40,000 bases of DNA from assembly GCF_029873475.1 (NCBI RefSeq), contig NZ_CP123499.1:999616-1039615 (forward strand), read 5' to 3'. Both the position numbers and the translations under genes were made by a program. Positions 7,032 through 40,000 of the stretch are shown in pieces; within the stretch, counting starts at the first letter, position 1; each line of letters starts with the position of its first letter. The notes beneath the pieces were generated by a model. That model made no database searches, was not told the DNA's origin, and saw only the letters and a list, made by a program, of their open reading frames with translations. This stretch comes from Arsenophonus sp. aPb. GTDB lineage: Bacteria > Pseudomonadota > Gammaproteobacteria > Enterobacterales > Enterobacteriaceae.

Positions 7032-7059
7032 TGGATGTCCTCTGATTTACACGCAAATC

Positions 7060-7605
7060 TCACGCAATTTTTGTTTGTTTGATGATTTTGTTTCCTATTG
7101 ACATTAATTCGTCACGATCGACATAGTTTGTTATATTTCTAGGTTTAATGAAGGGTCTCCAGATAAACAAAACAGATCCTTTCGTATTGCCATCTTTCTT
7201 TTTGTTTTCGCCGGCAGGAATAAAGTTAATCCGGCCATTTTCAATAAATCTGACTTCATCAGCCGTTTTTCTTGCTGTACAAAACCATTTAACCGATATA
7301 TCAGCAGGCAGAAGCATAACAACCGTCTGCATTTGTTTTCTGCACTCTTCATTTGCTTTTATTACCCATGGCAAAATTTTTGAGTAGGGCGGATTACAAA
7401 ATATCGCTCCGTAGCTAATCCAGTCACAATTTAAAGCATCATTTTTTTCCGTCAGATAATGGCTGCATAGCGCATTGTTATGCGCTGCCGCAGCGTCTAA
7501 ATAAAATCCGAATTCTGAATCAAGTGCTAAAAAGAGTGAAAGGGGAGTTTGCCATCTGTCACGTATTTCTTTTGGTGTGTGGCTGCCACCAAAGTCTGTT
7601 TTCAT
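7060..7605 (-). CDS. phage N6-adenine DNA methyltransferase (Dam-like, orphan)
   Basis: RWQTP...FDLD-like FYLDAAA motif plus the catalytic CNPPYS (NPPY) motif, with the size of the phage Dam family. Confidence 0.85.
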   Translation of the reverse strand: MKTDFGGSHTPKEIRDRWQTPLSLFLALDSEFGFYLDAAAAHNNALCSHYLTEKNDALNCDWISYGAIFCNPPYSKILPWVIKANEECRKQMQTVVMLLPADISVKWFCTARKTADEVRFIENGRINFIPAGENKKKDGNTKGSVLFIWRPFIKPRNITNYVDRDELMSIGNKIIKQTKIA

Positions 7606-8350: not shown

Positions 8351-8552
8351 TATTTTCTATAGCCCCCATCACATCAGAGCCTCTAATTTTTTCAAAAGCT
8401 AAACAAACCATTTCAAAAATTAACTGTTCCTGAGGATGGCTGGATTCCCAATATTTGAAATTCTTTCTTGCTACATAACCATGTAAGCGATAAAAATCGT
8501 TAGCTAAAGCTATTGCGGCATTAACTAATTCCTCATCAGTCATTGTTTCCAT
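8331..8552 (-). CDS. hypothetical early protein
   Basis: Operon packing, 73 codons. Confidence 0.55.
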   Translation of the reverse strand: METMTDEELVNAAIALANDFYRLHGYVARKNFKYWESSHPQEQLIFEMVCLAFEKIRGSDVMGAIENIEAEND

Positions 8553-9514
8553 TTCAAAACCTCAAAGCTGATTGCCCATACCCATGGATTAGTTTCCCAG
8601 CTACCTTTGCCATAAATTGAGTCCCATGTTTGAGCAAACCATGAGCGTGAGAAATCTGAAAACCAGGGTTCTTGTGATGAGGTATTTACAGCTGGGTGAT
8701 CTGGAATAACTCCTTCTGCTATCGTATCTACCAGGCTGATATCATTCAATTTCTCTACACGAACACCAGTAATTTTTAATGTGATGCGAGAAGCCCAGCG
8801 TGGCATGTTAGGTGGGTTAGCTACTGGGTTTTCATTCCAGGTCTTAGCGTTCCGCACTGACCAGATGGTTGATTGCGATACCCCATACTTAACGGAGAGG
8901 GCTCTTTGGCTTAGTCTAGACTCCCGGATATCATTTACGATTTCTGTCGTGAGCTTGGAGTTGTGATGATCTTCACCAAGTGATATCCCATTAACGAGTC
9001 GGTCTGACCAGTTCTGCTCCTGGGTTCCATAATCCAAATTTTCAGGAGCATTGTTTCTCTGGAAGCCATCAAGATGTCGAATTTGCATCCCGTCCGGCCG
9101 CTCCCCAAGAAAAGCCTCCGAAACCAAATCATGAACCAGCCTAGTTTTGTACTTCCCATTACTCGCCGGAGTTACTGTTAAATACCCTTTGCCGTTGGCG
9201 GAGCCAGAAAGTCGCCTCCATTCACCACCTGAATTAGCTCGTGACCAAATATAACCAAACACATCTGCGCAATATCTTCTGTCGAGTGATGGAATGTACA
9301 TTGCTGGGATTAGCCGATCGCCAACATTTCCGAACGGACAAGGTAAAGGCCTGCCATGCTCATCTTCATAACCTGCATGACCATTAAAAATGACATTGCT
9401 ATATCTAACAATGTTTGGATTACTTTTTATTGGTCTCCTGGTCTGCGTTTTACGTCCGTCTAAAATAGCTCTTACCATTTCTCCGTTAAAAATTATTGGT
9501 CTTTCTTTAGTCAT
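8540..9514 (-). CDS. ASCH-like phage protein carrying an in-frame HNH homing-endonuclease module
   Basis: The ends (IIFNGEMVRAILDGRKTQTRR...GDRL and MPRWASRITLKITGVRVEKLNDIS...AEG) match a common phage ASCH-like family. The middle (GKGYLTVT...RLVHDLVSEAFLGERPDGMQIRHLDGFQRNNAPENLDYGTQEQN ... SKLTTEIVNDIRE...LSVKYGVSQSTIWSVRNAKTW) is a NUMOD4/HNH_3 + HTH pattern. Confidence 0.8.
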   Translation of the reverse strand: MTKERPIIFNGEMVRAILDGRKTQTRRPIKSNPNIVRYSNVIFNGHAGYEDEHGRPLPCPFGNVGDRLIPAMYIPSLDRRYCADVFGYIWSRANSGGEWRRLSGSANGKGYLTVTPASNGKYKTRLVHDLVSEAFLGERPDGMQIRHLDGFQRNNAPENLDYGTQEQNWSDRLVNGISLGEDHHNSKLTTEIVNDIRESRLSQRALSVKYGVSQSTIWSVRNAKTWNENPVANPPNMPRWASRITLKITGVRVEKLNDISLVDTIAEGVIPDHPAVNTSSQEPWFSDFSRSWFAQTWDSIYGKGSWETNPWVWAISFEVLKWKQ

Positions 9515-9883: not shown

Positions 9884-10819
9884 CTATTTTTTATTTATCA
9901 TTCGTATATATGCGCTTATAAATTCTTTCGCGACCGGCGCGACAAGGGCATTACCGTAGGCGCGCAGGCGTCCCACTCTGTTGGTAACCCCATTAGCCAG
10001 CGGGAATGTGCCGGATTCAATCGGGCGCAACTTTCCATCTCTACACAAGATCCAGTCTGTATTTTCCCAGAATCCAGATACATAATTGCTTGCTCTTCCA
10101 GATTCCCCGGGCTTAATGATGACCTTCCCGTTATCAACCTTTTTCTCTGACGTTCTGCTAGCGCATCCGGTGATCGTGTTGAATTCACCGTTGTCGGCGT
10201 TAACCATCCTGTTATCATCATTCCTTGTTCTGTTGCATAATCCAGTCTGCTGAACATCCTGTTTTTTCCATCCTTCCGAATTATTGTTGGTCCACTTCCT
10301 TTGCAGTCGTTCGCCGTTGGTGTTGGCCACCCAGTAGAGTCTTTGCCTGATGTGCGGCGCACCGAAGCCCGCAGCGCATAAATCAAGCGCTGTTGTGGTG
10401 TAGTTCTCTGCTTCCAGGTCAGTTTGTACAATGTCGAGCCAAGTGAGTCCGTCTTTGCTTGCAACCTGTTCACCAAAGATAACGTCAGGGTTGCACTGGC
10501 AAATGAGGTGGAAAAACGCGGGCCATAAGTGCCGCTCATCAGCAAACCCATTTCTTTTGCCTGCCGCGCTGAAAGGCTGGCAGGGGCAACTTCCTGTCCA
10601 TACTGGTTTATCATCTGGCCATCCTGCCTTGCGTAATGCGTATGACCAGACGCCGATTCCTGCGAAGAAATGACATTGTGTATATGCTTTAAGGTCATCG
10701 GGTTTAACATCCTCTATTGAGCGTTCATCGACATCGCCATCGGCAATATGTCCTGCTGAGATTAAATTACGCAACCATTGAGCTGCGTAAGGGTCAATTT
10801 CATTGTAATAAGCAGCCAA
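9884..10819 (-). CDS. phage DNA (cytosine-5) methyltransferase (orphan; TTG start)
   Basis: Motifs FAGIG (I), SCPCQPFSAAGK (IV), FGEQV (VI), HIRQRLYWVA (VIII), RLRAYGNALVAPVA (X). GGAG RBS lies before the TTG. Confidence 0.9.
   Translation of the reverse strand: MAAYYNEIDPYAAQWLRNLISAGHIADGDVDERSIEDVKPDDLKAYTQCHFFAGIGVWSYALRKAGWPDDKPVWTGSCPCQPFSAAGKRNGFADERHLWPAFFHLICQCNPDVIFGEQVASKDGLTWLDIVQTDLEAENYTTTALDLCAAGFGAPHIRQRLYWVANTNGERLQRKWTNNNSEGWKKQDVQQTGLCNRTRNDDNRMVNADNGEFNTITGCASRTSEKKVDNGKVIIKPGESGRASNYVSGFWENTDWILCRDGKLRPIESGTFPLANGVTNRVGRLRAYGNALVAPVAKEFISAYIRMINKK
9916..10551 (-). CDS. candidate overprinted ORF in the +1 frame of the C5-MTase gene (211 aa from the ATG at 10551; frame is stop-free up to 10710)
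   Basis: 264 stop-free codons lie fully inside 9884..10819. The product has GSTLYKLTWK, ALRASVRRTSG, GWPTPTAND, GWLTPTT and a terminal LNPAHSRWLMGLPTEWD motif. Expression is unproven. Confidence 0.4.
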   Translation of the reverse strand: MGLLMSGTYGPRFSTSFASATLTLSLVNRLQAKTDSLGSTLYKLTWKQRTTPQQRLIYALRASVRRTSGKDSTGWPTPTANDCKGSGPTIIRKDGKNRMFSRLDYATEQGMMITGWLTPTTVNSTRSPDALAERQRKRLITGRSSLSPGNLEEQAIMYLDSGKIQTGSCVEMESCARLNPAHSRWLMGLPTEWDACAPTVMPLSRRSRKNL

Positions 10820-18414: not shown

Positions 18415-18980
18415 AACCTCTCCTTGAATAAATAAGTTTTAGCGATGTGTGACAGGTAACCTCTCCTGCTCAGTGCCGCGGTGTTTTTAATCATAGCCGA
18501 CCGTTCCATCAACGTATCTTTGGCCTTAGATAGCATATCCTTATGTTCGCTTAGGACGTTTAGGCTGCTTATCTTGTCCCGACCGTTTGACGATTGTCAT
18601 TCGTCATTCACACATCCCAAAACTTACTTGCTTGGCGCTACACTCTCGTAGTAGCCAACGCTCATGCCCTTGAGTCTATGTCGCCTCAGCCGCTAATAAC
18701 CGGTGAGAGTCTGGCTTTCTCTCTGCATGCTTTACCGGCGCACCTTCTTCTTTAATTAACCCTAACTAGCGTGCGTTGAAGTTTGCACCTTCATCTAGCT
18801 CTCAAGGAGACTCGGGGCTACTTCATGACAGTAGCTTGCAAGTTGCCCATCACTTAATTCACCATGATTAATATCTCCGTAGATGAAAACTTAACTACTA
18901 AATATTTTCAGGTAGTTCAAAACTAGGTGAAAATAAGAATTAACAGAGTATTAATCTATCAACTTGATATTGCCTCTCCA
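18415..18980 (-). other. ~570-nt ORF-free, G+C-elevated transcribed leader (candidate structured ncRNA)
   Basis: A hand count of seven 60-nt lines (18421-18840) gives about 47% G+C, against about 28-33% in two lines of the adjacent cassette. No ORF of 60 codons or more on either strand. Many local stems, e.g. UGACGA-7nt-UCGUCA, CCGGU...ACCGG enclosing GAGAG...CUCUC, and the long-range pair GAUGUGUGA/UCACACAUC. Confidence 0.35.
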
Positions 18981-18988
18981 CAAGAGCG
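18981..18988 (-). promoter_or_regulatory. boxA-like element (CGCTCTTG) about 30 nt downstream of pL
   Basis: 7/8 match to lambda boxA CGCTCTTA. No convincing boxB follows it. Confidence 0.3.
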
Positions 18989-19025
18989 GAGCATTCGTTT
19001 TTGTACTTCTGTGTTGATAGAGTTA

Positions 19026-19054
19026 ATTATCACTGATGGAGGTTTTATTGTCAA
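19026..19054 (-). promoter_or_regulatory. pL promoter
   Basis: The minus strand reads TTGACA-17 nt-GATAAT (-35 at 19049-19054, -10 at 19026-19031) and overlaps operator-like sites. Confidence 0.6.
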
Positions 19055-19069
19055 CACCGCCAGTGATTA
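19028..19069. promoter_or_regulatory. oL operators
   Basis: TATCACTGATGGAGGTT (19028-19044) and AACACCGCCAGTGATTA (19053-19069). The latter shares CACCGCCAGTG with lambda OL1 TATCACCGCCAGTGGTA. Confidence 0.55.
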
Positions 19070-19180
19070 TTTTAATTAAAAAAACACAACACATTGATTC
19101 AAAAAGAATTATTTTTTGTAAATTTTTTTGGAAAGGTAAGAAATGGAGAGGAGGGCAATAAAAAACCCTCGGGGAAGCGA

Positions 19181-19537
19181 TTAAAATTTGGGTATGATAG
19201 GTAGATTCTCTATATTGAATCCTGACATATTTAGCAGGTTTACAATATACGTTCTAATATAAGGATAAGCTAATCGATGAAAGTTAATCTCAGCCATAAA
19301 ATCATTTAATTTACTACTTGAAATTTCTTTTTTAAATTTTAGGAAAAAGTTGTATTTGAAAGATAATTCTAATGTGTCAGCAATTAATAGTACTGTTTCC
19401 ATGGTTGCTTTAATGTTTTTTTTATCTTTCTGATCAATAAAGTAAAACGATGTTATAATTATGTTGCTTTTAGTATGAGATGTATTTTCTTCAAGCTTAA
19501 TCTCTGAAACGTTTGCTTTAGTTATTGTAAATTCCAT
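19181..19537 (-). CDS. SecB-like chaperone (118 aa)
   Basis: The N-terminus FTITKANVSEIKLEE resembles SecB FQIQRIYTKDISFEA. The C-terminus AYPYIRTYIVNLLNMSGFNIENLPIIPKF resembles SecB [28 protein letters not shown]. GAGG RBS. Confidence 0.6.
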   Translation of the reverse strand: MEFTITKANVSEIKLEENTSHTKSNIIITSFYFIDQKDKKNIKATMETVLLIADTLELSFKYNFFLKFKKEISSSKLNDFMAEINFHRLAYPYIRTYIVNLLNMSGFNIENLPIIPKF

Positions 19538-19544
19538 TTAAACC

Positions 19545-19775
19545 TCAAAGAGACATTCTCATAGTGTTATGAGTAACAGATTGACATTCAATCCAATGGT
19601 GAACTTCTTGCTTAATTGAAGATGATTTAACGTTAATCGTAATAGAGGTATTGCTTTGATCTAATTGATTGCTATCAGCAATTCCTGCACTAACAAGTTC
19701 AGATAATAACTCATTTCTACTCATTGATTTCAGACGAGCAATAGATTCTTTTGCTAGTTGCATTTGGCTTTTCAT
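19545..19775 (-). CDS. 76-aa protein, candidate antitoxin of the cassette
   Basis: ATGA overlap with the upstream gene, and a strong GGGAGGG SD inside that gene's 3' end. No recognised domain. Confidence 0.6.
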   Translation of the reverse strand: MKSQMQLAKESIARLKSMSRNELLSELVSAGIADSNQLDQSNTSITINVKSSSIKQEVHHWIECQSVTHNTMRMSL

Positions 19776-20344
19776 ATCACCCTCCCTCGTTGTACAACTG
19801 TCAATGAATTTTTGTCAATAGAACGTAATGGCTCCCTTATGCTTATAATTGTACAATTTTGAATCCTAGAGTTGTATATATTTTTTCTTGACCACAGATC
19901 AAGCTTGATATATTCACTCCTAATAATAGCATCACAACCTATTGCTTTTGCTATATAGTTGCATACCTCACAATCATTCTTGAGTGATTTTTCGAATGAT
20001 TTAGTTGATGAGATGTTATTTTTCTTCATAATACCAATTAGTTCATCTCTATAGTAATTAAATACTTTTTTCCCTTCTATAGAATCCAGGTTTAGTGGGT
20101 TATTTATACTAATATTAGCTTTAATTACAGAAAATTGTGTATATTTATAACGTTTTCTAATTTTATCGTATGAATGTCTTTTAGCCCAACACGAAGCATT
20201 ATGTTCTGGATCGCTAACTCCATCGATAAAAAAATAAGCCCCAGTTCCTAGCCATTCATCTTCCTTTGTACTGACGCGAAAATTACCACTCAGAATCATA
20301 TCTTCATTTTCAGCATTTGTACCGTGATAACCTATTAATTCCAT
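19772..20344 (-). CDS. 190-aa protein with H-Y-E ADP-ribosyltransferase-like motifs (candidate toxin; possibly DUF3990-like)
   Basis: IGYHGT (res 4-9; compare ExoA VGYHGT and DT SYHGT), GTGAYFF (res 33-39), RSEYI (res 142-146; compare DT SVEYI). Weak RBS. Confidence 0.55.
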   Translation of the reverse strand: MELIGYHGTNAENEDMILSGNFRVSTKEDEWLGTGAYFFIDGVSDPEHNASCWAKRHSYDKIRKRYKYTQFSVIKANISINNPLNLDSIEGKKVFNYYRDELIGIMKKNNISSTKSFEKSLKNDCEVCNYIAKAIGCDAIIRSEYIKLDLWSRKNIYNSRIQNCTIISIREPLRSIDKNSLTVVQRGRVI

Positions 20345-31414: not shown

Positions 31415-32899
31415 ATGAAGCCACAACATTTAGCGTTATTACGCGATAAGCTTTGGCGACTAAATCATCTCTATTGGATAACGGATAAAACCGGAAAACC
31501 CATTCGTTTTGACATGACGCCTGAGCAGTTATTCTATTTTGAAGGCATGCATACCAGAAACATTATTCTTAAAGCGCGTCAGCTCGGTTTCACGACTGAG
31601 GTGTGTATTATTCAGCTTGATGCGGCATTATTTGAGTCAGCTAAATGCGCTTTAATTGCTCACACACTAACTGATGCAAAGCGTTTATTTAGAGAAAAAG
31701 TAAAGTACGCTTACGACAAATTGCCTGCCGAAATAAAGGCAGCCAATCCTGCTAGTAATGATTCTGCTGGAGAACTGGTTTTCAAAAAGGGTGGGTCAAT
31801 TTACATTAGTACATCATTTCGTGGTGGCACATTGCGTTATTTACATATCTCTGAATTTGGGAAAATATGTGCAAAATATCCCGATAAGGCACGTGAAATT
31901 GTAACAGGTGCCTTTGAAGCAGTATCCAGTGAGTGTTTTACGACAATAGAAAGCACGGCAGAGGGGAGAGCAGGCTACTTCTATGATTATTGTCAGTCTG
32001 CTGAAAAAGCACAACTCCAGGCAAAAAAACTTTCATCATTAGACTGGAAATTCTTTTTCTTTCCATGGTGGAAAAATAATAATTATGCAATTGATCCGGT
32101 GGAGTCCATTCCACAGCGGCTAATTGATTATTTTACTGAGCTATCCGGTGAACATGGCATTCGGTTAACTGACAAACAGAAAGCGTGGTATTACGCCAAA
32201 GAGAAAACCCTCGGTGATGATATGAAGCGGGAATATCCCTCACTTCCCGCTGAAGCTTTCCAGCAGTCAGTAGAAGGCGCTTACTATGCCAGGCAGTTTC
32301 GTTATCTTTATCAAAATAAACGCATTGGCACATTGCCTGATAATTCACATTTGCCAGTACATACATATTGGGATATTGGGGTTGGTGACTCAACGTCAAT
32401 CTGGTTTGTGCGTGAAGTAGGAAGTGAATTTCATGTCATAGATCACTACTCAAATAGTGGTGAAGGGTTGCGTTATTACATGAAGGTACTAAAAGATAAA
32501 GGCTATACCTATGCTAGTCACAACGCCCCTCATGATATCGATAATCGTGAGTTTGGATCTGACGCAAAATCCAGGCGTGAAATTGCCAGAGAAGGCTATG
32601 AAATTGATGGACAGAAATACGCAATACGATTTGATGTAGTGCCAAAACTTTCCATTGATGAAGGGATTGAGGCGGTGCGTGAAATATTGCCACATTGCGT
32701 ATTTGATGAATGTCGATGTGCCGATGGAATTACTAATTTAGAAGCGTATCGCAAGGAGTGGGATGACAAACGGGGTTGCTGGAAAGATAAACCGCTACAT
32801 GATTTTACGTCACATGATGCCGATGCATTTCGGTATTTTGCTATAAGCAAAGTCAATCGTAAGAAATTCATCAAGAAACTTAATTTTAACTGGAACTAA
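31415..32899 (+). CDS. terL: terminase large subunit
   Basis: 494 aa. ILKARQLGFTTE is a Walker-A-like segment. Nuclease-region acidic motifs (..WDIGVGDSTSIWF.., ..HDFTSHDADAFRY..). Confidence 0.9.
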   Translation: MKPQHLALLRDKLWRLNHLYWITDKTGKPIRFDMTPEQLFYFEGMHTRNIILKARQLGFTTEVCIIQLDAALFESAKCALIAHTLTDAKRLFREKVKYAYDKLPAEIKAANPASNDSAGELVFKKGGSIYISTSFRGGTLRYLHISEFGKICAKYPDKAREIVTGAFEAVSSECFTTIESTAEGRAGYFYDYCQSAEKAQLQAKKLSSLDWKFFFFPWWKNNNYAIDPVESIPQRLIDYFTELSGEHGIRLTDKQKAWYYAKEKTLGDDMKREYPSLPAEAFQQSVEGAYYARQFRYLYQNKRIGTLPDNSHLPVHTYWDIGVGDSTSIWFVREVGSEFHVIDHYSNSGEGLRYYMKVLKDKGYTYASHNAPHDIDNREFGSDAKSRREIAREGYEIDGQKYAIRFDVVPKLSIDEGIEAVREILPHCVFDECRCADGITNLEAYRKEWDDKRGCWKDKPLHDFTSHDADAFRYFAISKVNRKKFIKKLNFNWN

Positions 32900-32900
32900 T

Positions 32901-34280
32901 ATGGATAACAATGTTGATTACCGCCATCCTGCTTATACTGAGTTTCTACGGGAATGGGACATGATCGGCGATTGTGTTGAAGGTGAGCGGGTTATTAAAA
33001 GTCAGCGTGAACGATATCTACCCCATCCGGCTGATAACAGGGAAAAAGAAGATAAAAAAGGTGAGCGCTATAAAAAATACTTAATGCGTGCCCCTTTTAT
33101 TAATGCGACCGGTAGAACACTCAGCGGATTGATAGGCATTGCCTTTAGTAAACCGGTATCGGTTGATATCTCTTCGGAGATTGCGTATCTGGAAGATGAT
33201 ATTGATGGCGAAGGTCAGCCGCTGTCACAAATGATAAGGGATGCCTTATCGCAAAACCTGCAAAGAGGACGGGCGGGGTTGCTGACGGATTTTACCGGCT
33301 CAGGGATTCAGTCTGAGGCGAATAAAGGCCGTCCCTTTGTCAGATTATTTACTGCCAAACAGATTATCAACTGGCGGGTTACTCACGGTAAAACCTCACT
33401 GGTCGTTTTAAAATATCAGGAGCCCGTTGATTCAGATGACTTTGAATTCCAGCTACAGGATAACTGGATTGAGTTGAGACTACGCGAGGGGAAAGCGTAT
33501 TCACGTCACTGGCGTCAGGATAGTAATTTGATTGTCAGTGACTGGGTAGCGTTAACGGATGCAAAAGGTGCTCCGCTCACAGAATTACCCTGGTCATGGA
33601 TTGGTGCGGTTAATAACGACCACACGCCTGATGCGCCGCCATTGGCAGATATCGCCTATATCAACATCAAGCATTATCAAACCGAAGCAGATATTGCCGA
33701 AACTTCCCATACGGTTGGACAACCGATGGTGGCAATAACCGGCCTGACGGATGACTGGGCTAAAGAATATTTCCCCGATGGATTTACAGTCGGTTCACGC
33801 AGAGGGATTGCACTCCCTGTTGGCGGCGATATGAAGTTTGCCCAACCCGAGGAGCGTAATTTTCAGTTAACTGTTGCCGAGCGACGTGAAAAACAGATGG
33901 CCATGTTAGGCGCCAAGCTGATAGAAAGGGGCACATCGTCAAGAACCGCAACACAGGCGCAGGATGAAGCCCAGACAGATCATTCAGTCTTGTCCCTTTG
34001 TTCCGGCAATGTTGAACAGGCGATTAATCGGGCATTACAGTTCTGCATTCTGTTTGCAGGGAGCGGTAAGGCGGTTGTGACGTTAAACAAACAGTATGAA
34101 GTGGCTAAACTGGATTCATCATCCATTACGGCATTGTTAGCGGCTGTCCAGTCAAATAATCTGCGCAAAATCGACTTTATTCGCTATTTACAGCGCATTA
34201 ATATTGCCCCGCCGGATGAAAAGCCTATGGATATTATTACCGAACTGGAAACCTCAGCCAATAATCTGTTAGGGATGTGA
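32901..34280 (+). CDS. portal protein
   Basis: 459 aa immediately after terL. The N-terminal ..Y..F...W....D...G...VK.....YLP.. pattern fits DUF4055-type portals. Confidence 0.8.
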   Translation: MDNNVDYRHPAYTEFLREWDMIGDCVEGERVIKSQRERYLPHPADNREKEDKKGERYKKYLMRAPFINATGRTLSGLIGIAFSKPVSVDISSEIAYLEDDIDGEGQPLSQMIRDALSQNLQRGRAGLLTDFTGSGIQSEANKGRPFVRLFTAKQIINWRVTHGKTSLVVLKYQEPVDSDDFEFQLQDNWIELRLREGKAYSRHWRQDSNLIVSDWVALTDAKGAPLTELPWSWIGAVNNDHTPDAPPLADIAYINIKHYQTEADIAETSHTVGQPMVAITGLTDDWAKEYFPDGFTVGSRRGIALPVGGDMKFAQPEERNFQLTVAERREKQMAMLGAKLIERGTSSRTATQAQDEAQTDHSVLSLCSGNVEQAINRALQFCILFAGSGKAVVTLNKQYEVAKLDSSSITALLAAVQSNNLRKIDFIRYLQRINIAPPDEKPMDIITELETSANNLLGM

Positions 34281-35335
34281 GCATGCAGTCAGATCCCATT
34301 ATCGATAATGCGCTAATGATTCAGATTATGCTTGAGCGGGTTAAATCGGAGGTGATTAATAACAGAAATCTGGCTTCTGATTTAAGAAAAACGGTTGCAA
34401 AAGCCTTAGCGGAATTTTCAGGGCACATCTCATCACGAAATAAACTGAGACTGATTGTCAATTCACTGAAAAAAGAATTAAAGCCATTATTACAGAATTA
34501 TTCTGATGTTCTCTTGAATTTTGTTATTCAAACAGCTATTGAAATGGCGCATCTGGAATATCTTGGACTTTCTCAATGGTTTGATGATGTTAATGCGGTT
34601 GATGATAAAAAAGTAGAATCATCAATGAATAACACACCAATTTCATTAACGCAATGGAACGGATCGCTCTTTCTCGACAGGTTTATCGCTACCTGGATTG
34701 ATAATTCGCTGCAACAGATTGAAAACCAGGCTGTATTGACGATGGCATCAAGTGAAGATGTCAATTATCTAAAAGATAGTATTAACGGCACGTCAGTTGA
34801 GCCGATGATAATTGCTGCCGCTGTTATTGGTCGCATTATTCGCAATTATCAGACAATAGCAAGCACAGCATTACAGCATGCCCATAGTGTCGCGGCGGTC
34901 GATTTCTATAAAGAAAATCCTGATATGATTGAAGAGGAAGAATTTAGCGCAATTCTGGATTTAAAGACATCGACGGTGTGTCGTTCGCTATCCGGCAATC
35001 GTTATCCTCTTGGTACTGGGCCAATGCCGCCGCTTCATCCCCGCTGCCGTAGTCGTCTGTTACCAGTATTAAAACCTGAATTGATGAAAAAACTGGTAAC
35101 AAAGCCAGCAAGAAAATCGGAATGGGGAGAGGAAACGTATTACGAGTGGTTAACTAGACAATCAGCAACACGACAGGACATTGTATTAGGATCAACAAGG
35201 GGTAAGCTGTTTCGTGACGGCGGTTTGTCTCCCGCACAGTTTGCTAAATTGCAATTACACAAAAATTTCAAACCGATGACGCTTGAAGAGATGCGACGAG
35301 TAGCTCCCGATGCATTTAAGCGAGCCGGAATTTAA
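34277..35335 (+). CDS. head morphogenesis protein (Mu F / SPP1 gp7 family)
   Basis: ..TSTVCRSLSGNRYPLGTGPMPPLHPRCRSRLLPV.. is characteristic of Mu F-like minor head proteins. Confidence 0.8.
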   Translation: MSMQSDPIIDNALMIQIMLERVKSEVINNRNLASDLRKTVAKALAEFSGHISSRNKLRLIVNSLKKELKPLLQNYSDVLLNFVIQTAIEMAHLEYLGLSQWFDDVNAVDDKKVESSMNNTPISLTQWNGSLFLDRFIATWIDNSLQQIENQAVLTMASSEDVNYLKDSINGTSVEPMIIAAAVIGRIIRNYQTIASTALQHAHSVAAVDFYKENPDMIEEEEFSAILDLKTSTVCRSLSGNRYPLGTGPMPPLHPRCRSRLLPVLKPELMKKLVTKPARKSEWGEETYYEWLTRQSATRQDIVLGSTRGKLFRDGGLSPAQFAKLQLHKNFKPMTLEEMRRVAPDAFKRAGI

Positions 35336-35345
35336 TTAACTCAAG

Positions 35346-35370
35346 CCCGTCACCAGACGGGTTTTTTATT
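35346..35370 (+). terminator. intrinsic terminator inside the late operon
   Basis: CCCGTC-acca-GACGGG followed by TTTTTTATT. Confidence 0.6.
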
Positions 35371-35408
35371 ATCTGTAGTTGGCGACTACACCATCAAACC
35401 CGAGGTTA

Positions 35409-36119
35409 ATGATGACATTAAGGTATCAGTTAAGCAAAGAAGAATTTGATTCATTAAGTGATGAGCAAAAAGTGTTATATAAAGTATCTGGCGATAATTA
35501 CCAGATGCACATTGAAGGTCTACCTGAATTTCCTGACGTTTCAGGACTGCAAAAGAAAGTAAATGAGCTGCTTTCCGAGAAAAAAGCAGAGCAGGAGAAG
35601 CGACGTCAGGCCGAAGAGGCGGCAAAAAAAGCCGCAGAAGAGCAGGCAAGAAAAAACGGGGATATTGCCGCACTGGAAAAAAGCTGGTCAGAAAAGCTTG
35701 TCTCCCGTGAAAATGAATTACTGAAGCAGATTGAAGAAAAAGATACAAATTTAAGAACGTTACTGGTTGATAATGTTGCTCAATCTTTAGCGGCCAAACT
35801 GGCCGGTGACAGTGCTGAATTACTTTTACCCCATATTAAATCCAGGCTGACAGTAGAAGAAGGTAAAACCCGTATTATTGATGCAGAAGGAAAACCCTCT
35901 GCGGCAACCCTTGATGATTTAGAAAAAGAAATGCGTAGCAACAGGTTATTTGCACCTGTTGTTATTGGAAGTAAGGCGACTGGAACAACCCGAGGTGAAC
36001 CGCGCCATACCACTACTGGGGGTGGTGGTAAAATCTGGAAGGATTATACGGAAGCTGAACGCATTCGTATTTTCGAAGAAAATCCGGCGGAATTTAAACG
36101 CCTGGCCGAAACACAATAG
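35409..36119 (+). CDS. scaffolding protein (start moved to the ATG at 35409)
   Basis: A charged helical protein located between the MuF and capsid genes. The ORF-track TTG at 35379 is only 12 nt past the terminator stem (it sits in the trailing T-rich tract), and a GAGG RBS precedes 35409. Confidence 0.65.
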   Translation: MMTLRYQLSKEEFDSLSDEQKVLYKVSGDNYQMHIEGLPEFPDVSGLQKKVNELLSEKKAEQEKRRQAEEAAKKAAEEQARKNGDIAALEKSWSEKLVSRENELLKQIEEKDTNLRTLLVDNVAQSLAAKLAGDSAELLLPHIKSRLTVEEGKTRIIDAEGKPSAATLDDLEKEMRSNRLFAPVVIGSKATGTTRGEPRHTTTGGGGKIWKDYTEAERIRIFEENPAEFKRLAETQ

Positions 36120-36128
36120 GAATGAATT

Positions 36129-37115
36129 ATGCCAACAGTCGCAACACGATTATCTGATATTTTTATCGGTGACTATTATCAGACCATTCAACCCCAAAAC
36201 AGTCCTGAAAAAACGGCAGTCTTTGAATCGGGAATTATCAGCAAATTACCGCAGCTTGATGCCATTGCATCAGAGGGGCAAGGTACAGCAACCATTAGCT
36301 ACTGGAATGACCTTGACGCAGATGAAGCGCCAAATCAAACAACTGATGACCCCGATCAAATTGGTACAGTTGGTAAAGCTGACCAGTCAAAATTAAAAGC
36401 CCGCGTATTATATCTCAATAAAGGTTATGGTGTGGCGGATTTAGCCGCCGAGCTTGCCAACAGTGAGCCGATGACACATATACGAAACCGCTTCGGTGTC
36501 TATTGGACACGACAATGGCAGCGCTATTTAATCGGTTCTGCGAGAGGCATTATCGGCAGTAATATCGCCAATGATAAGAGTGACATGATCATTGAAGGTG
36601 GGGATAAAATTTCGGCAGATAATTTAATTGATGCTGCCTTTACTGCGGGTGATGCTGCAAGTGCTTTCAGCGCACTCGGTGTTCATTCTGTTGTCATGAA
36701 ACAAATGGCAAAACAGGATTTGATTGAGACACTTAAAGACTCAACCGGCCGCATTATTCTGCAAACCTATCTGGGTAAACCCATCTTTATGGATGATAGT
36801 TTAAAATATACCGATGGTCGTTATTTGACGGTTTTCTTCGGTAGTGGGGCTTTTGGTTATGGTAATGGGAATCCGCATACGCCGGTTGAACTGGAGCGGA
36901 AAGCGTCTGGTGGTAACGGGGGTGGTGCAGAGGTTCTGTGGGAGAGGAAAACATTTATTCTTCAGCCAGCAGGGTTTAGCTGGAAAGGAGAAGATGATCC
37001 GAATAAAACCCCATCTATTGATGATATTGCCAAACCTGACAACTGGGAACGTAAGTTTGAGCGTAAAAATGTTCCTTTTGCAGCAGTATTGAGTGGTAAT
37101 GAATCAGGTAGTTGA
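36129..37115 (+). CDS. major capsid protein
   Basis: 328 aa, positioned after the scaffold gene. Followed by a terminator. Confidence 0.8.
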   Translation: MPTVATRLSDIFIGDYYQTIQPQNSPEKTAVFESGIISKLPQLDAIASEGQGTATISYWNDLDADEAPNQTTDDPDQIGTVGKADQSKLKARVLYLNKGYGVADLAAELANSEPMTHIRNRFGVYWTRQWQRYLIGSARGIIGSNIANDKSDMIIEGGDKISADNLIDAAFTAGDAASAFSALGVHSVVMKQMAKQDLIETLKDSTGRIILQTYLGKPIFMDDSLKYTDGRYLTVFFGSGAFGYGNGNPHTPVELERKASGGNGGGAEVLWERKTFILQPAGFSWKGEDDPNKTPSIDDIAKPDNWERKFERKNVPFAAVLSGNESGS

Positions 37116-37120
37116 TAACA

Positions 37121-37141
37121 GGGGCATCAAGCCCCTTTTTA
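37121..37141 (+). terminator. intrinsic terminator after the capsid gene
   Basis: GGGGC-atcaa-GCCCC followed by TTTTT. Confidence 0.6.
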
Positions 37142-37149
37142 GGTGACCT

Positions 37150-37527
37150 ATGTCGGTAAAAATCACATTAGAACAAGTGAAATCTCAATTATCAACGATG
37201 GGGTTCACTACACCTGACTTTATTATTGAAGCCATGTTATCTATTGTTGATGAGATAGATGATTGTCTCGATGAGGCTAACTATTCAGACTCAGTGAAAA
37301 CGCTGATAAAGATTTATGCTGTTGTCATTATGTTGTCAGCCACTGATGTACGAAAAGTTTCGTCTGAATCATCACCTTCAGGCGCATCCAGATCTTACAA
37401 CTATTTTGATGATGGTAGAAAATCATTATTAAAATTGCTTTCTGTATTAGATACGGCTGGCTGCACTAACTCACTGCCTATCAATCAATCATCGGTAATT
37501 ATTCAGTTTAATGTTGTGCGAGGTTGA
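37150..37527 (+). CDS. head-tail connector / head completion protein (by position)
   Basis: 125 codons in the structural operon. Confidence 0.55.
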   Translation: MSVKITLEQVKSQLSTMGFTTPDFIIEAMLSIVDEIDDCLDEANYSDSVKTLIKIYAVVIMLSATDVRKVSSESSPSGASRSYNYFDDGRKSLLKLLSVLDTAGCTNSLPINQSSVIIQFNVVRG

Positions 37528-37528
37528 T

Positions 37529-37897
37529 ATGGGCGCAAAAGTAAAGGGAATAAACCAGGCAAGAGATAATCTGGCAAAACTGGTTGACCATGAGATATCT
37601 AATAAAGTGATGAGAGCACTTCATCGAGCAATGGATATCGGCGGGACACAATCAGCTATTTATACACCAATCGACACCAAGAAACTGATCAACTCTCAAT
37701 TTCGTGAAATTACTGATAATGGCACATTGATTACTGGCAGAGTGGGCTATTCAACTAATTATGCTGCGTATGTTCATGATCCGGCTGTTAAACAAAAATT
37801 CAAACGTCCTACGGCGAAAAAAGAATTTTTACGGCTTGGGTTTGATGAAAATAAGCCATTAATAGATAAAGTTGTAATGGAAGAGTTGAAACTATGA
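37529..37897 (+). CDS. HK97 gp10-family head-tail joining protein
   Basis: ..TQSAIYTPIDTKKLINS...GRVGYSTNYAAYVHD.. fits the gp10-family pattern. A GAGGT RBS precedes the ATG at 37529. Confidence 0.6.
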   Translation: MGAKVKGINQARDNLAKLVDHEISNKVMRALHRAMDIGGTQSAIYTPIDTKKLINSQFREITDNGTLITGRVGYSTNYAAYVHDPAVKQKFKRPTAKKEFLRLGFDENKPLIDKVVMEELKL

Positions 37898-38241
37898 GTT
37901 CACTGGCAAACTGGAGTTATACCGCAATCTGTACTCTATGGCGTAATTTGGGCATTGATGAAAATGGCGATCATATTGGCTGGTCAGAACCTATTTCAAT
38001 TTTATGTGACTATCAAGGTAATTCAACAGCAAAAATAGGCAACATTGGTATTGAAATAAATATCAAAAATACGTTTTGGACAGAATATGCAGAGGCAAAG
38101 CGTGGCGATTATATTGCTATTGGCCAGTCAGCTTACTGTGATCCAGTTTTGGCCGGTGCGGATGAAATCATGCAGGTTATTCGTTATGCGGACACTTTTG
38201 AGAGAGCAAAAGATGATTTTGCCATTATTACTGGGGCTTGA
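37894..38241 (+). CDS. head-tail/tail completion protein (by position)
   Basis: 115 codons; ATGA overlap with the upstream gene. Confidence 0.55.
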   Translation: MSSLANWSYTAICTLWRNLGIDENGDHIGWSEPISILCDYQGNSTAKIGNIGIEINIKNTFWTEYAEAKRGDYIAIGQSAYCDPVLAGADEIMQVIRYADTFERAKDDFAIITGA

Positions 38242-38642
38242 TAATGACGCCACCTATGTATAAACGAGTGAGCAATCTGTTCATTGATGCAGGATTAACT
38301 GAGGGATTTATTGTTCAGTATCTTCTATGGACAGATGATCCTAATGATAGAGGTAAAGCAAAAAGTTATCTGGTTTTTCGTCCTGGTGGCGGTACAAACA
38401 TCGATAAAGATATTGGCAGTGACTATTTCGTTATGGTCGATGTGATTTCGGCTAAAGGACAGCACGCCTATAAAAATGCCGATGAAGCCGTTAATCGCAT
38501 GATTGACTATATCAAAGACCATCCGCTTGATGATAAATGTGTGGGACAAATAACCAATTTCGGCGGTATTCCATCACCAATTTTAACGGAAGAAGGGCGT
38601 CTGGTTTTTCGCTTAATGTTCAGTTGTCTATACGGTGAATAA
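38238..38642 (+). CDS. tail terminator/completion protein (by position)
   Basis: 134 codons; 4-nt overlap with the upstream gene. Confidence 0.55.
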   Translation: MIMTPPMYKRVSNLFIDAGLTEGFIVQYLLWTDDPNDRGKAKSYLVFRPGGGTNIDKDIGSDYFVMVDVISAKGQHAYKNADEAVNRMIDYIKDHPLDDKCVGQITNFGGIPSPILTEEGRLVFRLMFSCLYGE

Positions 38643-38671
38643 TTTACAAAATTCAAGTTAATTAAAAACAG

Positions 38672-38696
38672 GGTCGGCTAATGCCGGCCTTTTTTA
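38672..38696 (+). terminator. intrinsic terminator before the tail-tube gene
   Basis: GGTCGGC-taat-GCCGGCC (one G-U pair) followed by TTTTTTATTT. Confidence 0.55.
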
Positions 38697-38712
38697 TTTA
38701 AAGAGGTCACAA

Positions 38713-39204
38713 ATGGCAATTTGTAAAAGTAATAATACCAAAATGTTTGGCAGGGCGGTCATTGTTGAAGTGGCTGATGGATGTCCTGATGAAGTTCCTT
38801 CAGAAAATGATTTTATGTTACTGGCGGCTGGAACCAGTAAAACATTTGATATGTCACCGAATACTGTGACATCTTCAGCTGATGATACCAAAGGCTGGGT
38901 TGAAAATATCGTAACTTCAAATGATTTAACCATTTCGTTTGAAGGTGAGGTCAGGGTTAATGACAGATCAGATCAATACGGCGTTTATAAATTTATTAAA
39001 TATTATGTCAACGAGGCGACTAATGCACGGCAACCTACGATTTGGGTAAGAATGTATTTTGGTCAGATTATGATACAAGCTTACATGGTCATAACGGCAC
39101 TCAGTAATGACGGTGGCACAGATGATATAGTGACATTTTCGACAGAATTTAAAGTCGCTGATGGTTCAACTGTCAAAGTTGATGATATTGAATCTGGTAG
39201 TTAA
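38713..39204 (+). CDS. major tail (tube) protein
   Basis: 163 aa with a beta-rich composition; position and size fit siphophage tail tube proteins. Confidence 0.7.
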   Translation: MAICKSNNTKMFGRAVIVEVADGCPDEVPSENDFMLLAAGTSKTFDMSPNTVTSSADDTKGWVENIVTSNDLTISFEGEVRVNDRSDQYGVYKFIKYYVNEATNARQPTIWVRMYFGQIMIQAYMVITALSNDGGTDDIVTFSTEFKVADGSTVKVDDIESGS

Positions 39205-39217
39205 TAAATATAGTTAT

Positions 39218-39235
39218 CCTCGTCAATTGACGAGG
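39218..39235. repeat. perfect 18-bp palindrome CCTCGTCAATTGACGAGG
   Basis: Read directly from the sequence. No U-tract follows, so it is not a canonical terminator. Confidence 0.6.
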
Positions 39236-39262
39236 TAAATAACAGATAAATCAGGGTATAAA

Positions 39263-40000
39263 ATGGACGTGACGATTAATGGAGTCAGTTACTCACCGAA
39301 TACTTATAAGATCGGCATCGCTATCACAACATATAATCGAACTGATGTGTTAATTGATACTATCAGGCAGCATAAAAAATATCTTCCAGCAGGTGCAACA
39401 TTAGTTGTTATTGATGATGGCTCTAAGGATGAAATCGTATTGAGTGAAGACATAAAAGTTATTCGTCATCAAAAATCAAAAGGGATTGTTGCCGCTAAAA
39501 ATACAAGTCTGGAAGTTTTAATGGATGCAGGATGTGATCACCTTTTCTTATGGGATGATGATGCTTATCCAATCGCTGAAAACTGGCATATTCCATATAT
39601 AAACTCACCTGAGCTACATTTGTCATATCAATTTCTTGATTTGGCTGGCGAAAATAAACTTAATGATATTGCTATCCTGTATAAAGATAATAGACACATT
39701 GCATATACAGGACAACGCGGCGTAATGCTCTACTATCATCGCTCAGTTATCGAGAAAGTCGGTGGCTTTGACCCTGTTTATGGACGAGGTATGTATGAGC
39801 ATGCTGACCTGGCCATGCGTATTTATCATGCAGGGTTAACAACTTGGGCTTATGCAGACATAGCAGGTTCAGACAAACTCATTTATTCACTTGATGAGCA
39901 TGAAAAAGTGATGCGTTCAGTTCCCAGGGTAGAAAGAGAGCTACTGGTTCATAGTAATATCGGTACGTATAACCTAAGAAGGGAGGAGGGTTACACAGCT
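39263..40000 (+). CDS. family-2 (GT-A) glycosyltransferase, 3' end outside the window (absent from the ORF track)
   Basis: Hand translation of 246 stop-free codons gives MDVTINGVSYSPNTYKIGIAITTYNRTDVL...ATLVVIDDGSKDE...GIVAAKNTSL...HLFLWDDDAYP...GVMLYYHRSVIEKVGGFDP. The layout is typical GT2, with a DxD motif. Confidence 0.8.
   Translation, partial: MDVTINGVSYSPNTYKIGIAITTYNRTDVLIDTIRQHKKYLPAGATLVVIDDGSKDEIVLSEDIKVIRHQKSKGIVAAKNTSLEVLMDAGCDHLFLWDDDAYPIAENWHIPYINSPELHLSYQFLDLAGENKLNDIAILYKDNRHIAYTGQRGVMLYYHRSVIEKVGGFDPVYGRGMYEHADLAMRIYHAGLTTWAYADIAGSDKLIYSLDEHEKVMRSVPRVERELLVHSNIGTYNLRREEGYTA

Follow-up and report, generated by a model that had tools for sequence, protein, structure and literature searches.

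Why do the major capsid and tail tube proteins encoded by a prophage of Arsenophonus sp. aPb end in the same four residues, and what is the role of the glycosyltransferase gene that lies directly beyond them? We analysed these genes in a stretch of 40,000 nt (hereafter the window) and compared them with related phage loci. The initial annotation had called the element an enterobacterial prophage, which is right as far as the order Enterobacterales is concerned; Arsenophonus sp. aPb itself is an insect symbiont of the Morganellaceae and no classical enteric bacterium.

Capsid and tail tube proteins share a C-terminal ESGS tag

The two structural genes, their 3' ends and the hairpins next to them are as follows.

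36129..37115, + strand: major capsid protein gene (328 aa), predicted glycan acceptor; Pfam Gp13-like, phrog_247 (E 1e-95), NCBI WP_280551525 'phage coat protein'
37101..37112, + strand: capsid C-terminal tag E-S-G-S, codons GAA TCA GGT AGT, then stop TGA at 37113-37115
37120..37141, + strand: terminator-like hairpin and T-run just 3' of the capsid gene; stem 37120-37136 with 5 G-C pairs, then TTTTT
38670..38701, + strand: terminator-like hairpin and T-run just upstream of the tail tube gene; 9-pair stem 38670-38691, then TTTTATTT
38713..39204, + strand: tail tube (major tail) gene (163 aa), predicted glycan acceptor; Pfam Phage_tail_2, phrog_853 (E 2e-70), NCBI WP_280551530 'phage tail tube protein'
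39190..39201, + strand: tail tube C-terminal tag E-S-G-S, codons GAA TCT GGT AGT, then stop TAA at 39202-39204

The Pfam and PHROG matches bore out the identities that had been assigned to both proteins, and the translations confirmed the shared ESGS ending: the capsid ORF (36129-37115) ends in ..AAVLSGNESGS and the tail tube ORF (38713-39204) in ..VKVDDIESGS. The tag DNA, which had been described as almost identical, agrees at 14 of 16 positions between the two 16-nt strings quoted, and the likeness between the two genes stops at the four tag codons, with none upstream. The tag had also been held to be exclusive to these two proteins, and a G-S ending was indeed present on only 2 of the 196 window ORFs of at least 40 aa on both strands. 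G-S endings are otherwise rare: among ORFs of at least 100 aa, they make up 3/964 in loci of related phages that lack the transferase and 5/712 in unrelated ones. Two of them, placed precisely on the two virion proteins of highest abundance, are therefore not expected by chance.

The match of the tail tube protein to phrog_853 covers profile positions 1-159 of 254. Most of its relatives at 78-86% identity have 246-253 aa, with an Ig-like domain following residue ~160, and ESGS stands exactly where these homologues attach this domain of ~85 residues. Since the tag replaces the domain, its position should be exposed. In the window family and the HK97 family, tail tubes carried either the Ig-like domain or a G-S tag, never both, and we hypothesize that the two have a common function.

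A soluble GT2 glycosyltransferase gene follows the tail tube gene

Two features lie between the tail tube gene and the end of the window.

39218..39235, no strand: 18-bp perfect palindrome CCTCGTCAA/TTGACGAGG, between the tail tube and transferase genes; 9+9 nt, 100% complementary, spacer-free
39263..40000, + strand: soluble GT-A (GT2) glycosyltransferase, first 246 codons of ~481 aa; Pfam Glycos_transf_2 (E 2e-6), phrog_1579 'glycosyltransferase' (E 7e-112)

The palindrome noted earlier behind the tail tube gene is present at 39218-39235; it has no T-run behind it and is absent from the terminator calls, so that it is no canonical terminator. The GT2 ORF starts at 39263, is open at the window end and contains the motifs that had been read from it, IAITTYNR (19-26), VVIDDGS (48-54) and WDDDA (97-101); all window ORFs from terminase to transferase are intact. 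An AlphaFold model of the transferase (pLDDT 90) has a GT-A fold, and its best PDB matches in a fold search were B4GALNT1 and polypeptide GalNAc-transferases. The initial annotation had taken the gene to stand in place of the tail chaperone genes. Judging from the gene orders of phage ENT47670 and of a related locus, L203, it appears instead to be inserted between the tail tube and DUF6246 genes.

The DNA of L203 is 91.8% identical to window positions 32777-40000 and continues past the point at which the window ends. L203 encodes a 481-aa transferase that matches the window fragment at 94.7% identity; next come a 199-aa protein (phrog_854) homologous to mycobacteriophage Che8 gp110 (E 9e-23) and then a DUF6246 gene. 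Of 42 genome loci, 41 had such a small partner enzyme after the large transferase. From L203 and these loci, a gp110-type enzyme is predicted just beyond the window end. Neither enzyme of the cassette has membrane or hydrophobic segments. In the comparison of the window with L203, tags, transferase and second enzyme were all intact, with 92-95% conservation. L203 has no tape measure gene and no tail-tip genes after the cassette, and its left arm differs from that of the window; because the tape measure gene is missing there, the Arsenophonus elements may be decaying and might not make virions.

Terminal Ser co-occurs with the transferase

Absence of the tag from related phages, or a lack of correlation with the transferase there, had been named beforehand as the result that would refute a link between the two; the outcome favoured the link. 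Among relatives of the window capsid protein, G-S ended 9 of 9 proteins with the transferase and 0 of 19 without it (Fisher p = 1.4e-7, kinship among the sequences being ignored); this count and those below take in related sequences and are not independent events. The ends were AAGS, GAGS, ASGS and GSGS with the transferase, and TATP, TETP, KTEA and similar without it. Capsid and tail proteins in 44 transferase loci were then identified tag-blind, by blastp with queries lacking their last 6 residues. Terminal Ser was found on 34 of the 35 capsid proteins recovered (GS 26, TS 7, NS 1, other 1) and on all 19 tail tube proteins recovered (GS 16, SS 2, TS 1). Some capsid and tail ends in these loci are TS, SS or NS, not GS.

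The Ser-ending proteins of transferase loci span at least four capsid and at least four tail-tube PHROG families. When 10 representative G-S-ending proteins were checked against PHROG, nine were major head or tail proteins (phrog_10, 617, 247, 283, 584 and 158) and the tenth was annotated as a minor tail protein (phrog_290). G-S was the commonest C-terminal dipeptide in transferase loci (53/1670 ORFs), and 52 of these 53 ORFs lay on the transferase strand. What is conserved of the tag is its terminal G-S, above all the terminal Ser, and not the full ESGS by which it had been defined. In the loci examined, the cassette always lay within the late/structural operon and shared the strand of the structural genes. 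It was present in 59 of 62 HK97-type IMG/VR loci with adequate upstream flank, and the isolated phages mEp390, ECP1, AsXd-1 and FSL SP-016 all show the cassette-tag pattern. HK97 has a capsid end ..FSSGS and no transferase, and one locus (L173) has both tags with the cassette absent within 10 kb; the tag alone thus proves nothing.

The cassette enzymes are related to mycobacteriophage enzymes

The analogy with mycobacteriophage glycosylation that had been drawn earlier goes further than proposed: by sequence, the enzymes are homologous and not merely analogous. With gp100 of the cluster-F phage SuperGrey, the window transferase shares 49% identity, and a tblastn search with this transferase as query matched 670 phage records, 567 of which were Mycobacterium phages at ~49% identity. 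SuperGrey gp100 at full length is 43-44% identical to the transferases of L203 and ENT47670 (44% over 488 residues for ENT47670 GT485). The small enzyme shows 36-38% identity to Che8 gp110 and 31-38% to SuperGrey gp102. No similarity was found between the window transferase and Che8 gp108 or gp109; since the large transferase is not homologous to these, the glycan here probably differs from that of Che8 and need not resemble it.

The Che8 capsid and tail proteins end in ..NKTGS and ..YSDGS, and those of Corndog in ..PLVGS and ..IKGDS; these ..TGS/..DGS and ..VGS/..GDS ends have the same form as the ESGS found twice in the window. In SuperGrey the ends are ..KTGS (capsid) and ..SDGS (tail tube). 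Virion O-glycosylation was reportedly described in Che8 (cluster F) and Corndog (cluster O) by Freeman et al. 2023 (Cell Host Microbe 31:1216). In Mycobacterium phages, capsid and tail tube subunits bear glycans at their C-termini (PMC12619734), and the linkage is of the O type (PMC11652166); gp110 of Che8 and gp38 of Corndog are reported to be required for capsid glycosylation, gp110 being one of two such glycosyltransferases (PMC12363180).

A proposed virion-glycosylation system and alternative explanations

Comparison with other phages strongly supports the reading that the window contains the first portion of a virion-glycosylation system encoded by the phage, a Gram-negative relative of the mycobacteriophage one. 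Two soluble cytoplasmic glycosyltransferases, a large GT2 enzyme encoded from 39263 and a small GT25-like enzyme of the Che8 gp110 family, would be made late in infection alongside the structural proteins and would jointly furnish the short tails at the C-termini of the major capsid and tail tube proteins with an O-linked glycan. The element recognized as acceptor would be the extreme C-terminus, with the consensus [A/S/Q/P]-G-S-COOH as the likely acceptor motif, represented here by E-S-G-S on both proteins. We infer that a sugar is actually attached to the two proteins and that the terminal Ser is its attachment site. Head and tail would as an outcome be covered with several hundred glycan chains, and on the tail tube the tag would take the place of the relatives' Ig-like decoration domain.

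The transferase could instead be a lysogenic-conversion moron that modifies the host lipopolysaccharide or another surface glycan, the tags being unrelated. Both enzyme families are filed in PHROGs under 'moron, auxiliary metabolic gene and host takeover', O-antigen-modifying transferases are generally known to be frequent in temperate phages of Enterobacterales, and the fold search brought up GT-A enzymes of a generic kind, polysaccharide synthases and TarP among them. Seroconversion, an alternative that the initial annotation had left standing, is nevertheless disfavoured because the enzymes lack membrane segments and the cassette lies in the late/structural operon, on the structural strand and never beside an integrase or attachment site. 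We saw no flippase or membrane transferase partner, the terminal-Ser pattern over unrelated capsid and tail families would be left unexplained, and the Che8 and Corndog homologues act on virion proteins (PMC12619734, PMC12363180); we regard this explanation as very unlikely. Glycosylation of phage DNA against restriction, in the style of the T-even glucosyltransferases and with incidental tags, would fit the label 'glucosyltransferase' that the small enzyme bears in several records, and DNA-hypermodifying phage transferases are known (cited in PMC12619734). However, no hydroxymethyl-pyrimidine synthesis genes were seen in the window, mEp390 or ECP1, the tag correlation would again go unexplained, and the Che8 gp110 family is reported to be essential for capsid glycosylation (PMC12363180), all of which makes this extremely unlikely.

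We give almost no credence to the view that the tag, as a flexible Gly/Ser tail, serves structure or proteolysis and has no link to the transferase, with which it would co-occur from shared ancestry only. Relatives without the transferase do have short Ser/Thr/Gly-rich tails (..SGTATP, ..SGSETGGTEGE), and the HK97-like head-tail adaptor ends in ..EEGS whether or not there is a cassette; but ancestry cannot give G-S on at least four capsid and at least four tail PHROG families in hosts of 37%-68% GC, nor the same ends in Che8 and Corndog, whose C-termini are the glycan sites (PMC12619734). There is a small but real chance that the system is of the virion-glycosylation kind and yet idle here, the Arsenophonus prophage being in decay and the tags and gene mere relics kept by descent. 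This would agree with the tag that HK97 keeps without an enzyme, with the missing tail genes and different left arm of L203, and with the fact that the window stops short of the second enzyme and the remaining tail genes. It is opposed by the intact ORFs from terminase to transferase, by the conservation of tags and both enzymes described above, and by the nearest capsid and tail-tube relatives (~85% identity), which are untagged, so that the tags are a recent, maintained feature of this lineage.

Comparison with known systems

Gtr serotype-converting systems consist of membrane proteins, work with lipid-linked sugars and O-antigen, and lie beside the integrase. Like the window transferase they are phage-borne, GT2-type and found in temperate Enterobacterales phages, but the window enzymes are soluble and encoded in the structural operon, whereas Gtr is membrane-bound and integrase-side. 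In Pseudomonas aeruginosa 1244 pilin, a surface protein that polymerises, PilO/TfpO attaches an O-glycan to the C-terminal Ser, and the type of acceptor is thus alike. PilO/TfpO, however, works in the periplasm as an oligosaccharyltransferase with a lipid-linked donor and is unrelated to the window enzymes in sequence and compartment. C-terminal Ig-like decoration domains of the lambda gpV type occupy the same tail tube position as the tag and are presumably alike exposed, but they are folded protein domains, whereas the tag consists of four residues that would bear a glycan.

The same cassette, at 62-67% identity, is carried by the HK97-like coliphages mEp390, HK542 and ECP1 and by AsXd-1 (Aeromonas), FSL SP-016 (Salmonella) and ENT47670 (Cronobacter), whose capsid and tail tube proteins end in G-S, except for TS/SS in ENT47670. 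The gene order of ENT47670 is that of the window: tail tube, transferase, small transferase, DUF6246 and then tape measure. The capsid and tail families of these phages differ from those of the window (HK97 gp5 type, protease-capsid fusions), and HK97-like phages have the cassette between the lysis and terminase genes, unlike the window. The literature searched held no report of glycosylation in any of these six phages, and within that literature the earlier statement that such a system had not been described in enterobacterial prophages holds.

The proposed virion-glycosylation system of the window would have the same targets as those of Che8 and Corndog, the C-termini of capsid and tail tube. 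Their small transferase (gp110/gp38 type) is homologous to the small enzyme of the window's relatives, and the enzymes are phage-encoded and soluble. The host of Che8 and Corndog is an actinobacterium, that of the window a Gram-negative insect symbiont of the Enterobacterales, and their cassette lies at the right genome end, whereas that of the window directly follows the tail tube gene. The cluster-F cassette of SuperGrey has the same two-gene architecture, gp100 (536 aa) and gp102 (207 aa), but likewise sits at the right end of the genome, a long way from the structural genes; to our knowledge, this variant is not the one that has been dissected experimentally. Enzyme plus tag, the arrangement known from mycobacteriophages, is also common in phages that infect E. 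coli and related bacteria.

Capsid and tail tube proteins of the prophage share a C-terminal tag

The window contains a prophage, with the host genes for a flavodoxin and a type I secretion ABC protein at its left side. The host, Arsenophonus sp. aPb, is an insect symbiont of the Morganellaceae (Enterobacterales) with a G+C content of ~37%. Rightward from the integrase, the genes encode a DnaB helicase, an Rz lysis protein, the terminase large subunit, portal, scaffold, capsid, connectors, tail terminator and tail tube. Megablast of positions 36100-40000 against the phage collection gave zero matches.

Features of the prophage (window coordinates)
5789-6895 (-): lambda-type integrase
31415-32899: terminase large subunit
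36129-37115: major head protein, 328 aa, C-terminus ..LSGNESGS; Pfam Gp13-like, phrog_247 (E 1e-95)
37120-37136: terminator-like hairpin with T-run, 3' of the capsid gene
Between the connector proteins and the tail tube gene: tail terminator (PF23842)
38670-38691: terminator-like hairpin with T-run, 5' of the tail tube gene
38713-39204: major tail (tail tube) protein, 163 aa, C-terminus ..VDDIESGS; Pfam Phage_tail_2, phrog_853 (E 2e-70)
39218-39235: 18-bp perfect palindrome
From 39263 (+), past the window end after 246 codons: GT2 transferase; Pfam PF00535, phrog_1579 (E 7e-112)

The initial annotation had claimed that the capsid protein and the tail tube protein both end in ESGS and that no other protein in the window does so. 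Translation of the ORFs confirmed the tag on both proteins, and among the 196 ORFs of at least 40 aa in the whole window these two were the only ones ending in G-S. The near-identity of the DNA encoding the two tags was given no weight, as the likeness spans four codons only. The palindrome described after the tail tube gene was also found; it was rejected as a terminator, having no T-run and being absent from the terminator calls. Elsewhere in the prophage, the early leftward region has an HNH_3 endonuclease ORF (8540-9514, -) adjoining a C-5 cytosine DNA methylase ORF (9884-10819, -), and the segment 14001-16000 is very low in G+C (28.5%).

A GT-A transferase is encoded downstream of the tail tube gene

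The ORF starting at 39263 had been read as a GT2 enzyme, and its PF00535 and phrog_1579 matches bear this out. D52 and D98/D100, located in the motifs VVIDDGS and WDDDA, were near-invariant in an alignment of 27 sequences, and the AlphaFold model of the transferase had a pLDDT of 90.4 and a pTM of 0.88. Pfam match, conserved aspartates and model together assign the enzyme a GT-A fold with a DxD-type metal/nucleotide-sugar motif. Searching the PDB with the model by Foldseek returned B4GALNT1, ppGalNAc-T2/T3/T7, heparosan synthase and TarP as top matches (TM ~0.6), with a probability of 1.0 for B4GALNT1, the GalNAc-transferases and heparosan synthase. As these matches are generic to GT-A enzymes, the fold search cannot separate a protein-directed from a glycan-directed enzyme; the modelled fold is compatible with a peptide acceptor, not diagnostic of one. 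When the large transferase and the small transferase described below were each searched alone by sequence against solved structures, no match was found, and a profile search of solved structures gave weak matches only, to heparosan synthase.

To place the enzyme among phage proteins, we ran tblastn against 50,697 phage records and obtained 670 matches, 567 of them to Mycobacterium phages at ~49% identity. The top matches (58-68% identity) came from enterobacterial and Aeromonas phages and from Klebsiella jumbo phages. The larger transferase has a homologue in the glycosylating cluster-F mycobacteriophages, namely gp100 of SuperGrey (Cheoctovirus; 536 aa), which is 49% identical to the window fragment (E 1e-75). 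Che8 gp108 and gp109 were ruled out as homologues, showing no significant similarity; the window enzyme is of the SuperGrey gp100 type. The large transferase is also present, at 56-59% identity, in virulent Klebsiella and Serratia jumbo phages (e.g. NC_061418, ~297 kb), and the small transferase is matched by Klebsiella and Serratia phage records too. Some homologues of the transferase N-domain (P0099, P0101, P0109 and P0114), with ~40% identity, are joined to an O-methyltransferase domain of the TylF/Methyltransf_24 type. A parallel is found in Che8 gp108, whose C-terminal part has 54% identity to the Corndog gp35 methyltransferase, and the glycans of some lineages may be methylated.

In relatives, a small transferase of the Che8 gp110 family follows the large one

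The proteobacterial cassette consists of an enzyme of ~485 aa and one of ~197 aa. The small enzyme is 36-38% identical to Che8 gp110, which matches Pfam Glyco_transf_25, and to SuperGrey gp102, which is encoded downstream of gp100 and is 85% identical to Che8 gp110. Of 42 genome loci, 41 have its gene after that of the large enzyme, and in 27 it overlaps the stop codon of the latter. The gp110/gp38-family gene of the window itself would fall past base 40000; besides those 41 loci, it was seen in a close relative, a contig of Logan accession SRR5642298 (L203). This contig aligns with positions 32777-40000 of the window at 91.8% DNA identity and has ESGS on its capsid and tail tube proteins as well. 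Its transferase (481 aa) is 94.7% identical across the window part, and its end is overlapped by the gene of a 199-aa gp110 homologue (31% identity, E 9e-23; phrog_854), followed by a DUF6246/phrog_791 gene.

The initial annotation had placed the transferase where tail chaperones are expected. The ORF that follows the tail tube gene is indeed a transferase, and no overlapping, frameshifted pair of the lambda G/GT type was found there; the notion that it stands in place of the chaperones did not hold. Cronobacter phage ENT47670 has the same order as L203 (transferase, small transferase, DUF6246), and then the tape measure gene. The order in these two elements argues that the cassette was inserted between the tail tube gene and its usual followers and replaces none of them.

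No tape measure or tail-tip genes were found on the L203 contig after the cassette and the DUF6246 gene; KilA-N, C5 methylase, HEPN, GmrSD, Arc and ANT genes lie downstream on this contig (1-20525). On the upstream side, the terminase large subunit of the window is replaced by a D5-type primase together with another capsid-like gene of phrog_247 (2202-3191), whose product likewise has a G-S ending (..VEHGS). L203 may be a satellite-like or decaying element. Another recurrent neighbour, often just 5' of the transferase, is a protein of 216-341 aa ending in ..(K/Q)PGG(L/M)(I/L)W.. (L002 9276-9989, L015 9093-9998, L201 34972-35745 and others). It has a weak Phage_Tail_Tip match, is annotated as N15 gp59-like in Salmonella phage FSL SP-016, and could be a third cassette component or a mere neighbour. 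Its identity as a methyltransferase was unsupported, with no Pfam match and PHROG matches only to families of unknown function.

Tag and transferase occur together across phages and prophages

We then compared relatives of the window capsid in IMG/VR. All nine loci with the transferase directly after the capsid gene had capsids ending in AAGS, GAGS, ASGS or GSGS, versus none of the 19 loci without the transferase, which ended in TATP, TETP, KTEA, TEGE and similar sequences, with one GASS (Fisher p = 1.4e-7, uncorrected for relatedness). The survey was extended to 44 transferase-carrying loci from 40-odd species, in which capsid and tail proteins were found by blastp using queries stripped of their last six residues. 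Terminal Ser was present on 34 of 35 capsid proteins found (GS 26, TS 7, NS 1; the one other ending is doubtful) and on all 19 tail tube proteins found (GS 16, SS 2, TS 1). The correlation between tag and enzyme on which the initial annotation had staked its reading came out favourably.

G-S was the commonest C-terminal dipeptide in the transferase loci (53 of 1670 ORFs of at least 100 aa, 52 of them on the transferase strand), compared with 3 of 964 in related loci without the enzyme and 5 of 712 in unrelated loci. Ten representative G-S-ending proteins were searched against PHROGs: nine were major head or tail proteins from six families (phrog_10, 617, 247, 283, 584 and 158), and the tenth was annotated as a minor tail protein (phrog_290). 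The capsid protein and the tail tube protein end in ..FSSGS and ..YASGS in the HK97-like coliphages mEp390 and ECP1, in ..FSSGS and ..IESGS in Aeromonas phage AsXd-1, in ..GAGAGS and ..IDPGS in FSL SP-016, and in ..GEATS and ..SEPSS in ENT47670. Distinct C-terminal hexamers numbered 38 for capsid and 25 for tail proteins, and every one ended in Ser; position -1 was G in 53 of them, T in 7, and one of S, N or D in the other 3, and position -2 was mostly A, S, Q or P. An actinobacterial prophage of 68% G+C (L037) also fits this pattern, with a transferase 62% identical to that encoded by the 39%-G+C gene of the window. These data indicate that a pair of homologous enzymes and one shared putative C-terminal acceptor are common in Enterobacterales prophage lineages, including E. 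coli K-12 coliphages.

Transferases 61-65% identical to that of the window, with G-S-ending capsid/tail proteins nearby, were found in genomes labelled as the actinobacterium Puerhibacterium puerhi (L037), as Pseudomonas lundensis (L028) and as an alphaproteobacterial (Rhizobiaceae) MAG (L032/L036/L038). Since gene composition matches each host, the spread looks old and not like an artefact of contamination. HNH endonuclease genes lie in or beside the cassette of mEp390 (L099, 38222-38734) and ECP1 (L100, 9282-9842 and 11871-12212); the mEp390 record notes similarity of its HNH gene to Corndog gp56, which hints at how the cassette might move between phages of different phyla. The HK97-like head-tail adaptor Ad1 ends in ..EEGS with or without the cassette (L099 5170-5496, L167 11192-11518), and the mEp390 side tail fibre (18977-20326) ends in ..DSGS; both may be further acceptors or background.

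Tags also occur without the enzyme and alternate with Ig-like domains

HK97 (NC_002167) has a tagged capsid (4028-5185, ..FSSGS), an Ig-type tail tube (6733-7437) and no transferase, and is a natural acceptor without the enzyme. One locus (L173) has both tags and no cassette within 10 kb, another (L078) ends in ..GASS with no cassette in range, and a third (L156) combines the cassette with an untagged Ig-type tail tube. Of the HK97-type loci with enough flanking sequence, 59 carried the cassette as well as a tagged capsid, 2 had a tagged capsid but no cassette, and 1 lacked both. Module exchange is expected to leave some tags with no enzyme, and such cases show that the tag alone is no evidence of glycosylation.

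The nearest relatives of the window capsid (85% identity; L067-L069) have neither transferase nor tag and carry Lys-rich tails. The nearest tail tube relatives (78-86% identity; L181-L195) are also without the transferase, and most are 246-253 aa long, with an Ig-like domain joined exactly at the ESGS position of the window protein. Tag and transferase were thus probably acquired recently in the window's lineage. Among HK97-like tail tubes, the short forms (147-156 aa) end in G-S; the 234-aa Ig-type ends in ..CTLTIS. In two unrelated tail tube families (seen in the window, L181-L198 and L101-L180), a protein has either an Ig-like domain (234-253 aa) or the short G-S form, never both.

A proposed cytoplasmic virion-glycosylation system is favoured over serotype conversion

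The analysis shows the genes, the tags, the homology and the co-occurrence of tag and enzyme. In the mechanism that we propose, the late operon would yield two soluble enzymes together with the structural proteins. Acting in the cytoplasm, ahead of virion assembly or while it proceeds, these enzymes would construct an O-glycan on the C-terminal Ser tail of capsid and tail tube subunits. Sugar attachment, the Ser used, the enzyme order and the glycan structure are inferred. The last Ser is invariant and residues before position -2 vary, which suggests that recognition depends on the terminal Ser and perhaps on its free carboxylate. As an insect symbiont never meets antibodies, the natural function of the glycan is probably something other than shielding from them; since the tag alternates with Ig-like domains, it is a reasonable guess that the glycan takes part in surface interactions or protects the particle.

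A different role for the transferase would be seroconversion, and PHROGs labels both enzymes as morons. A Gtr module has a membrane-embedded transferase with a flippase partner, is expressed in the lysogen and lies beside the integrase or attachment site; in contrast, the window transferase has no membrane segment. Neither enzyme contains a hydrophobic segment (maximum 19-residue hydropathy 0.6-1.3), and the transferase gene lies within the structural operon, 32 kb from the integrase. No Gtr-type arrangement was found.

For virion glycosylation in its general form, we lean slightly towards the view that [A/S/Q/P]-G-S-COOH is a portable, cross-phyla glyco-tag read by a cassette of the gp110 and SuperGrey gp100 types. 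Glycan-coated virions would then be usual in HK97-like and several other Enterobacterales prophage lineages and no peculiarity of actinobacteriophages, with the tail tube tag and Ig-like domain as interchangeable decorations. If so, virion glycosylation could be tested in E. coli, the most tractable phage-host system: HK97, whose capsid is the best-studied of any phage, should have it glycosylated when given the cassette. Appending the tag to further proteins could allow them to be O-glycosylated in the cytoplasm of E. coli. Glycosylated virions would become predictable from sequence alone, by the combination of phrog_1579, phrog_854 and a terminal G-S on both the capsid and the tail tube protein. 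There would also be a bearing on phage therapy and gut phage biology, given that glycans are described as shielding particles from antibodies in the mycobacterial case.

Comparison with glycosylated mycobacteriophages

To our knowledge, glycosylation of phage particles was first described in 2023, for actinobacterial phages only, and the abstract by Freeman and colleagues reportedly notes little evidence of it in the broader phage population. Our full-text literature search turned up no account of glycosylated virions among enterobacterial phages. Of the papers that cite Freeman and colleagues, one locates the Mycobacterium phage glycans on the C-terminal ends of the subunits that form capsid and tail tube (PMC12619734), and another describes them as O-linked and as lowering antibody binding, which shields the particles (PMC11652166). 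Che8 gp110 and Corndog gp38 are named in a third as transferases essential for capsid glycosylation (PMC12363180). In Che8, capsid gp6 ends in ..FNKTGS and tail tube gp11 in ..QYSDGS, and the SuperGrey endings are the same; in Corndog, capsid gp41 ends in ..VPLVGS and gp49, at the tail tube position, in ..IKGDS. The window likewise has its putative acceptor at the extreme C-terminus of both capsid and tail tube: like Che8 (TGS/DGS) and Corndog (VGS/GDS), it carries a terminal Ser, mostly as G-S, on both proteins, in its case ESGS twice.
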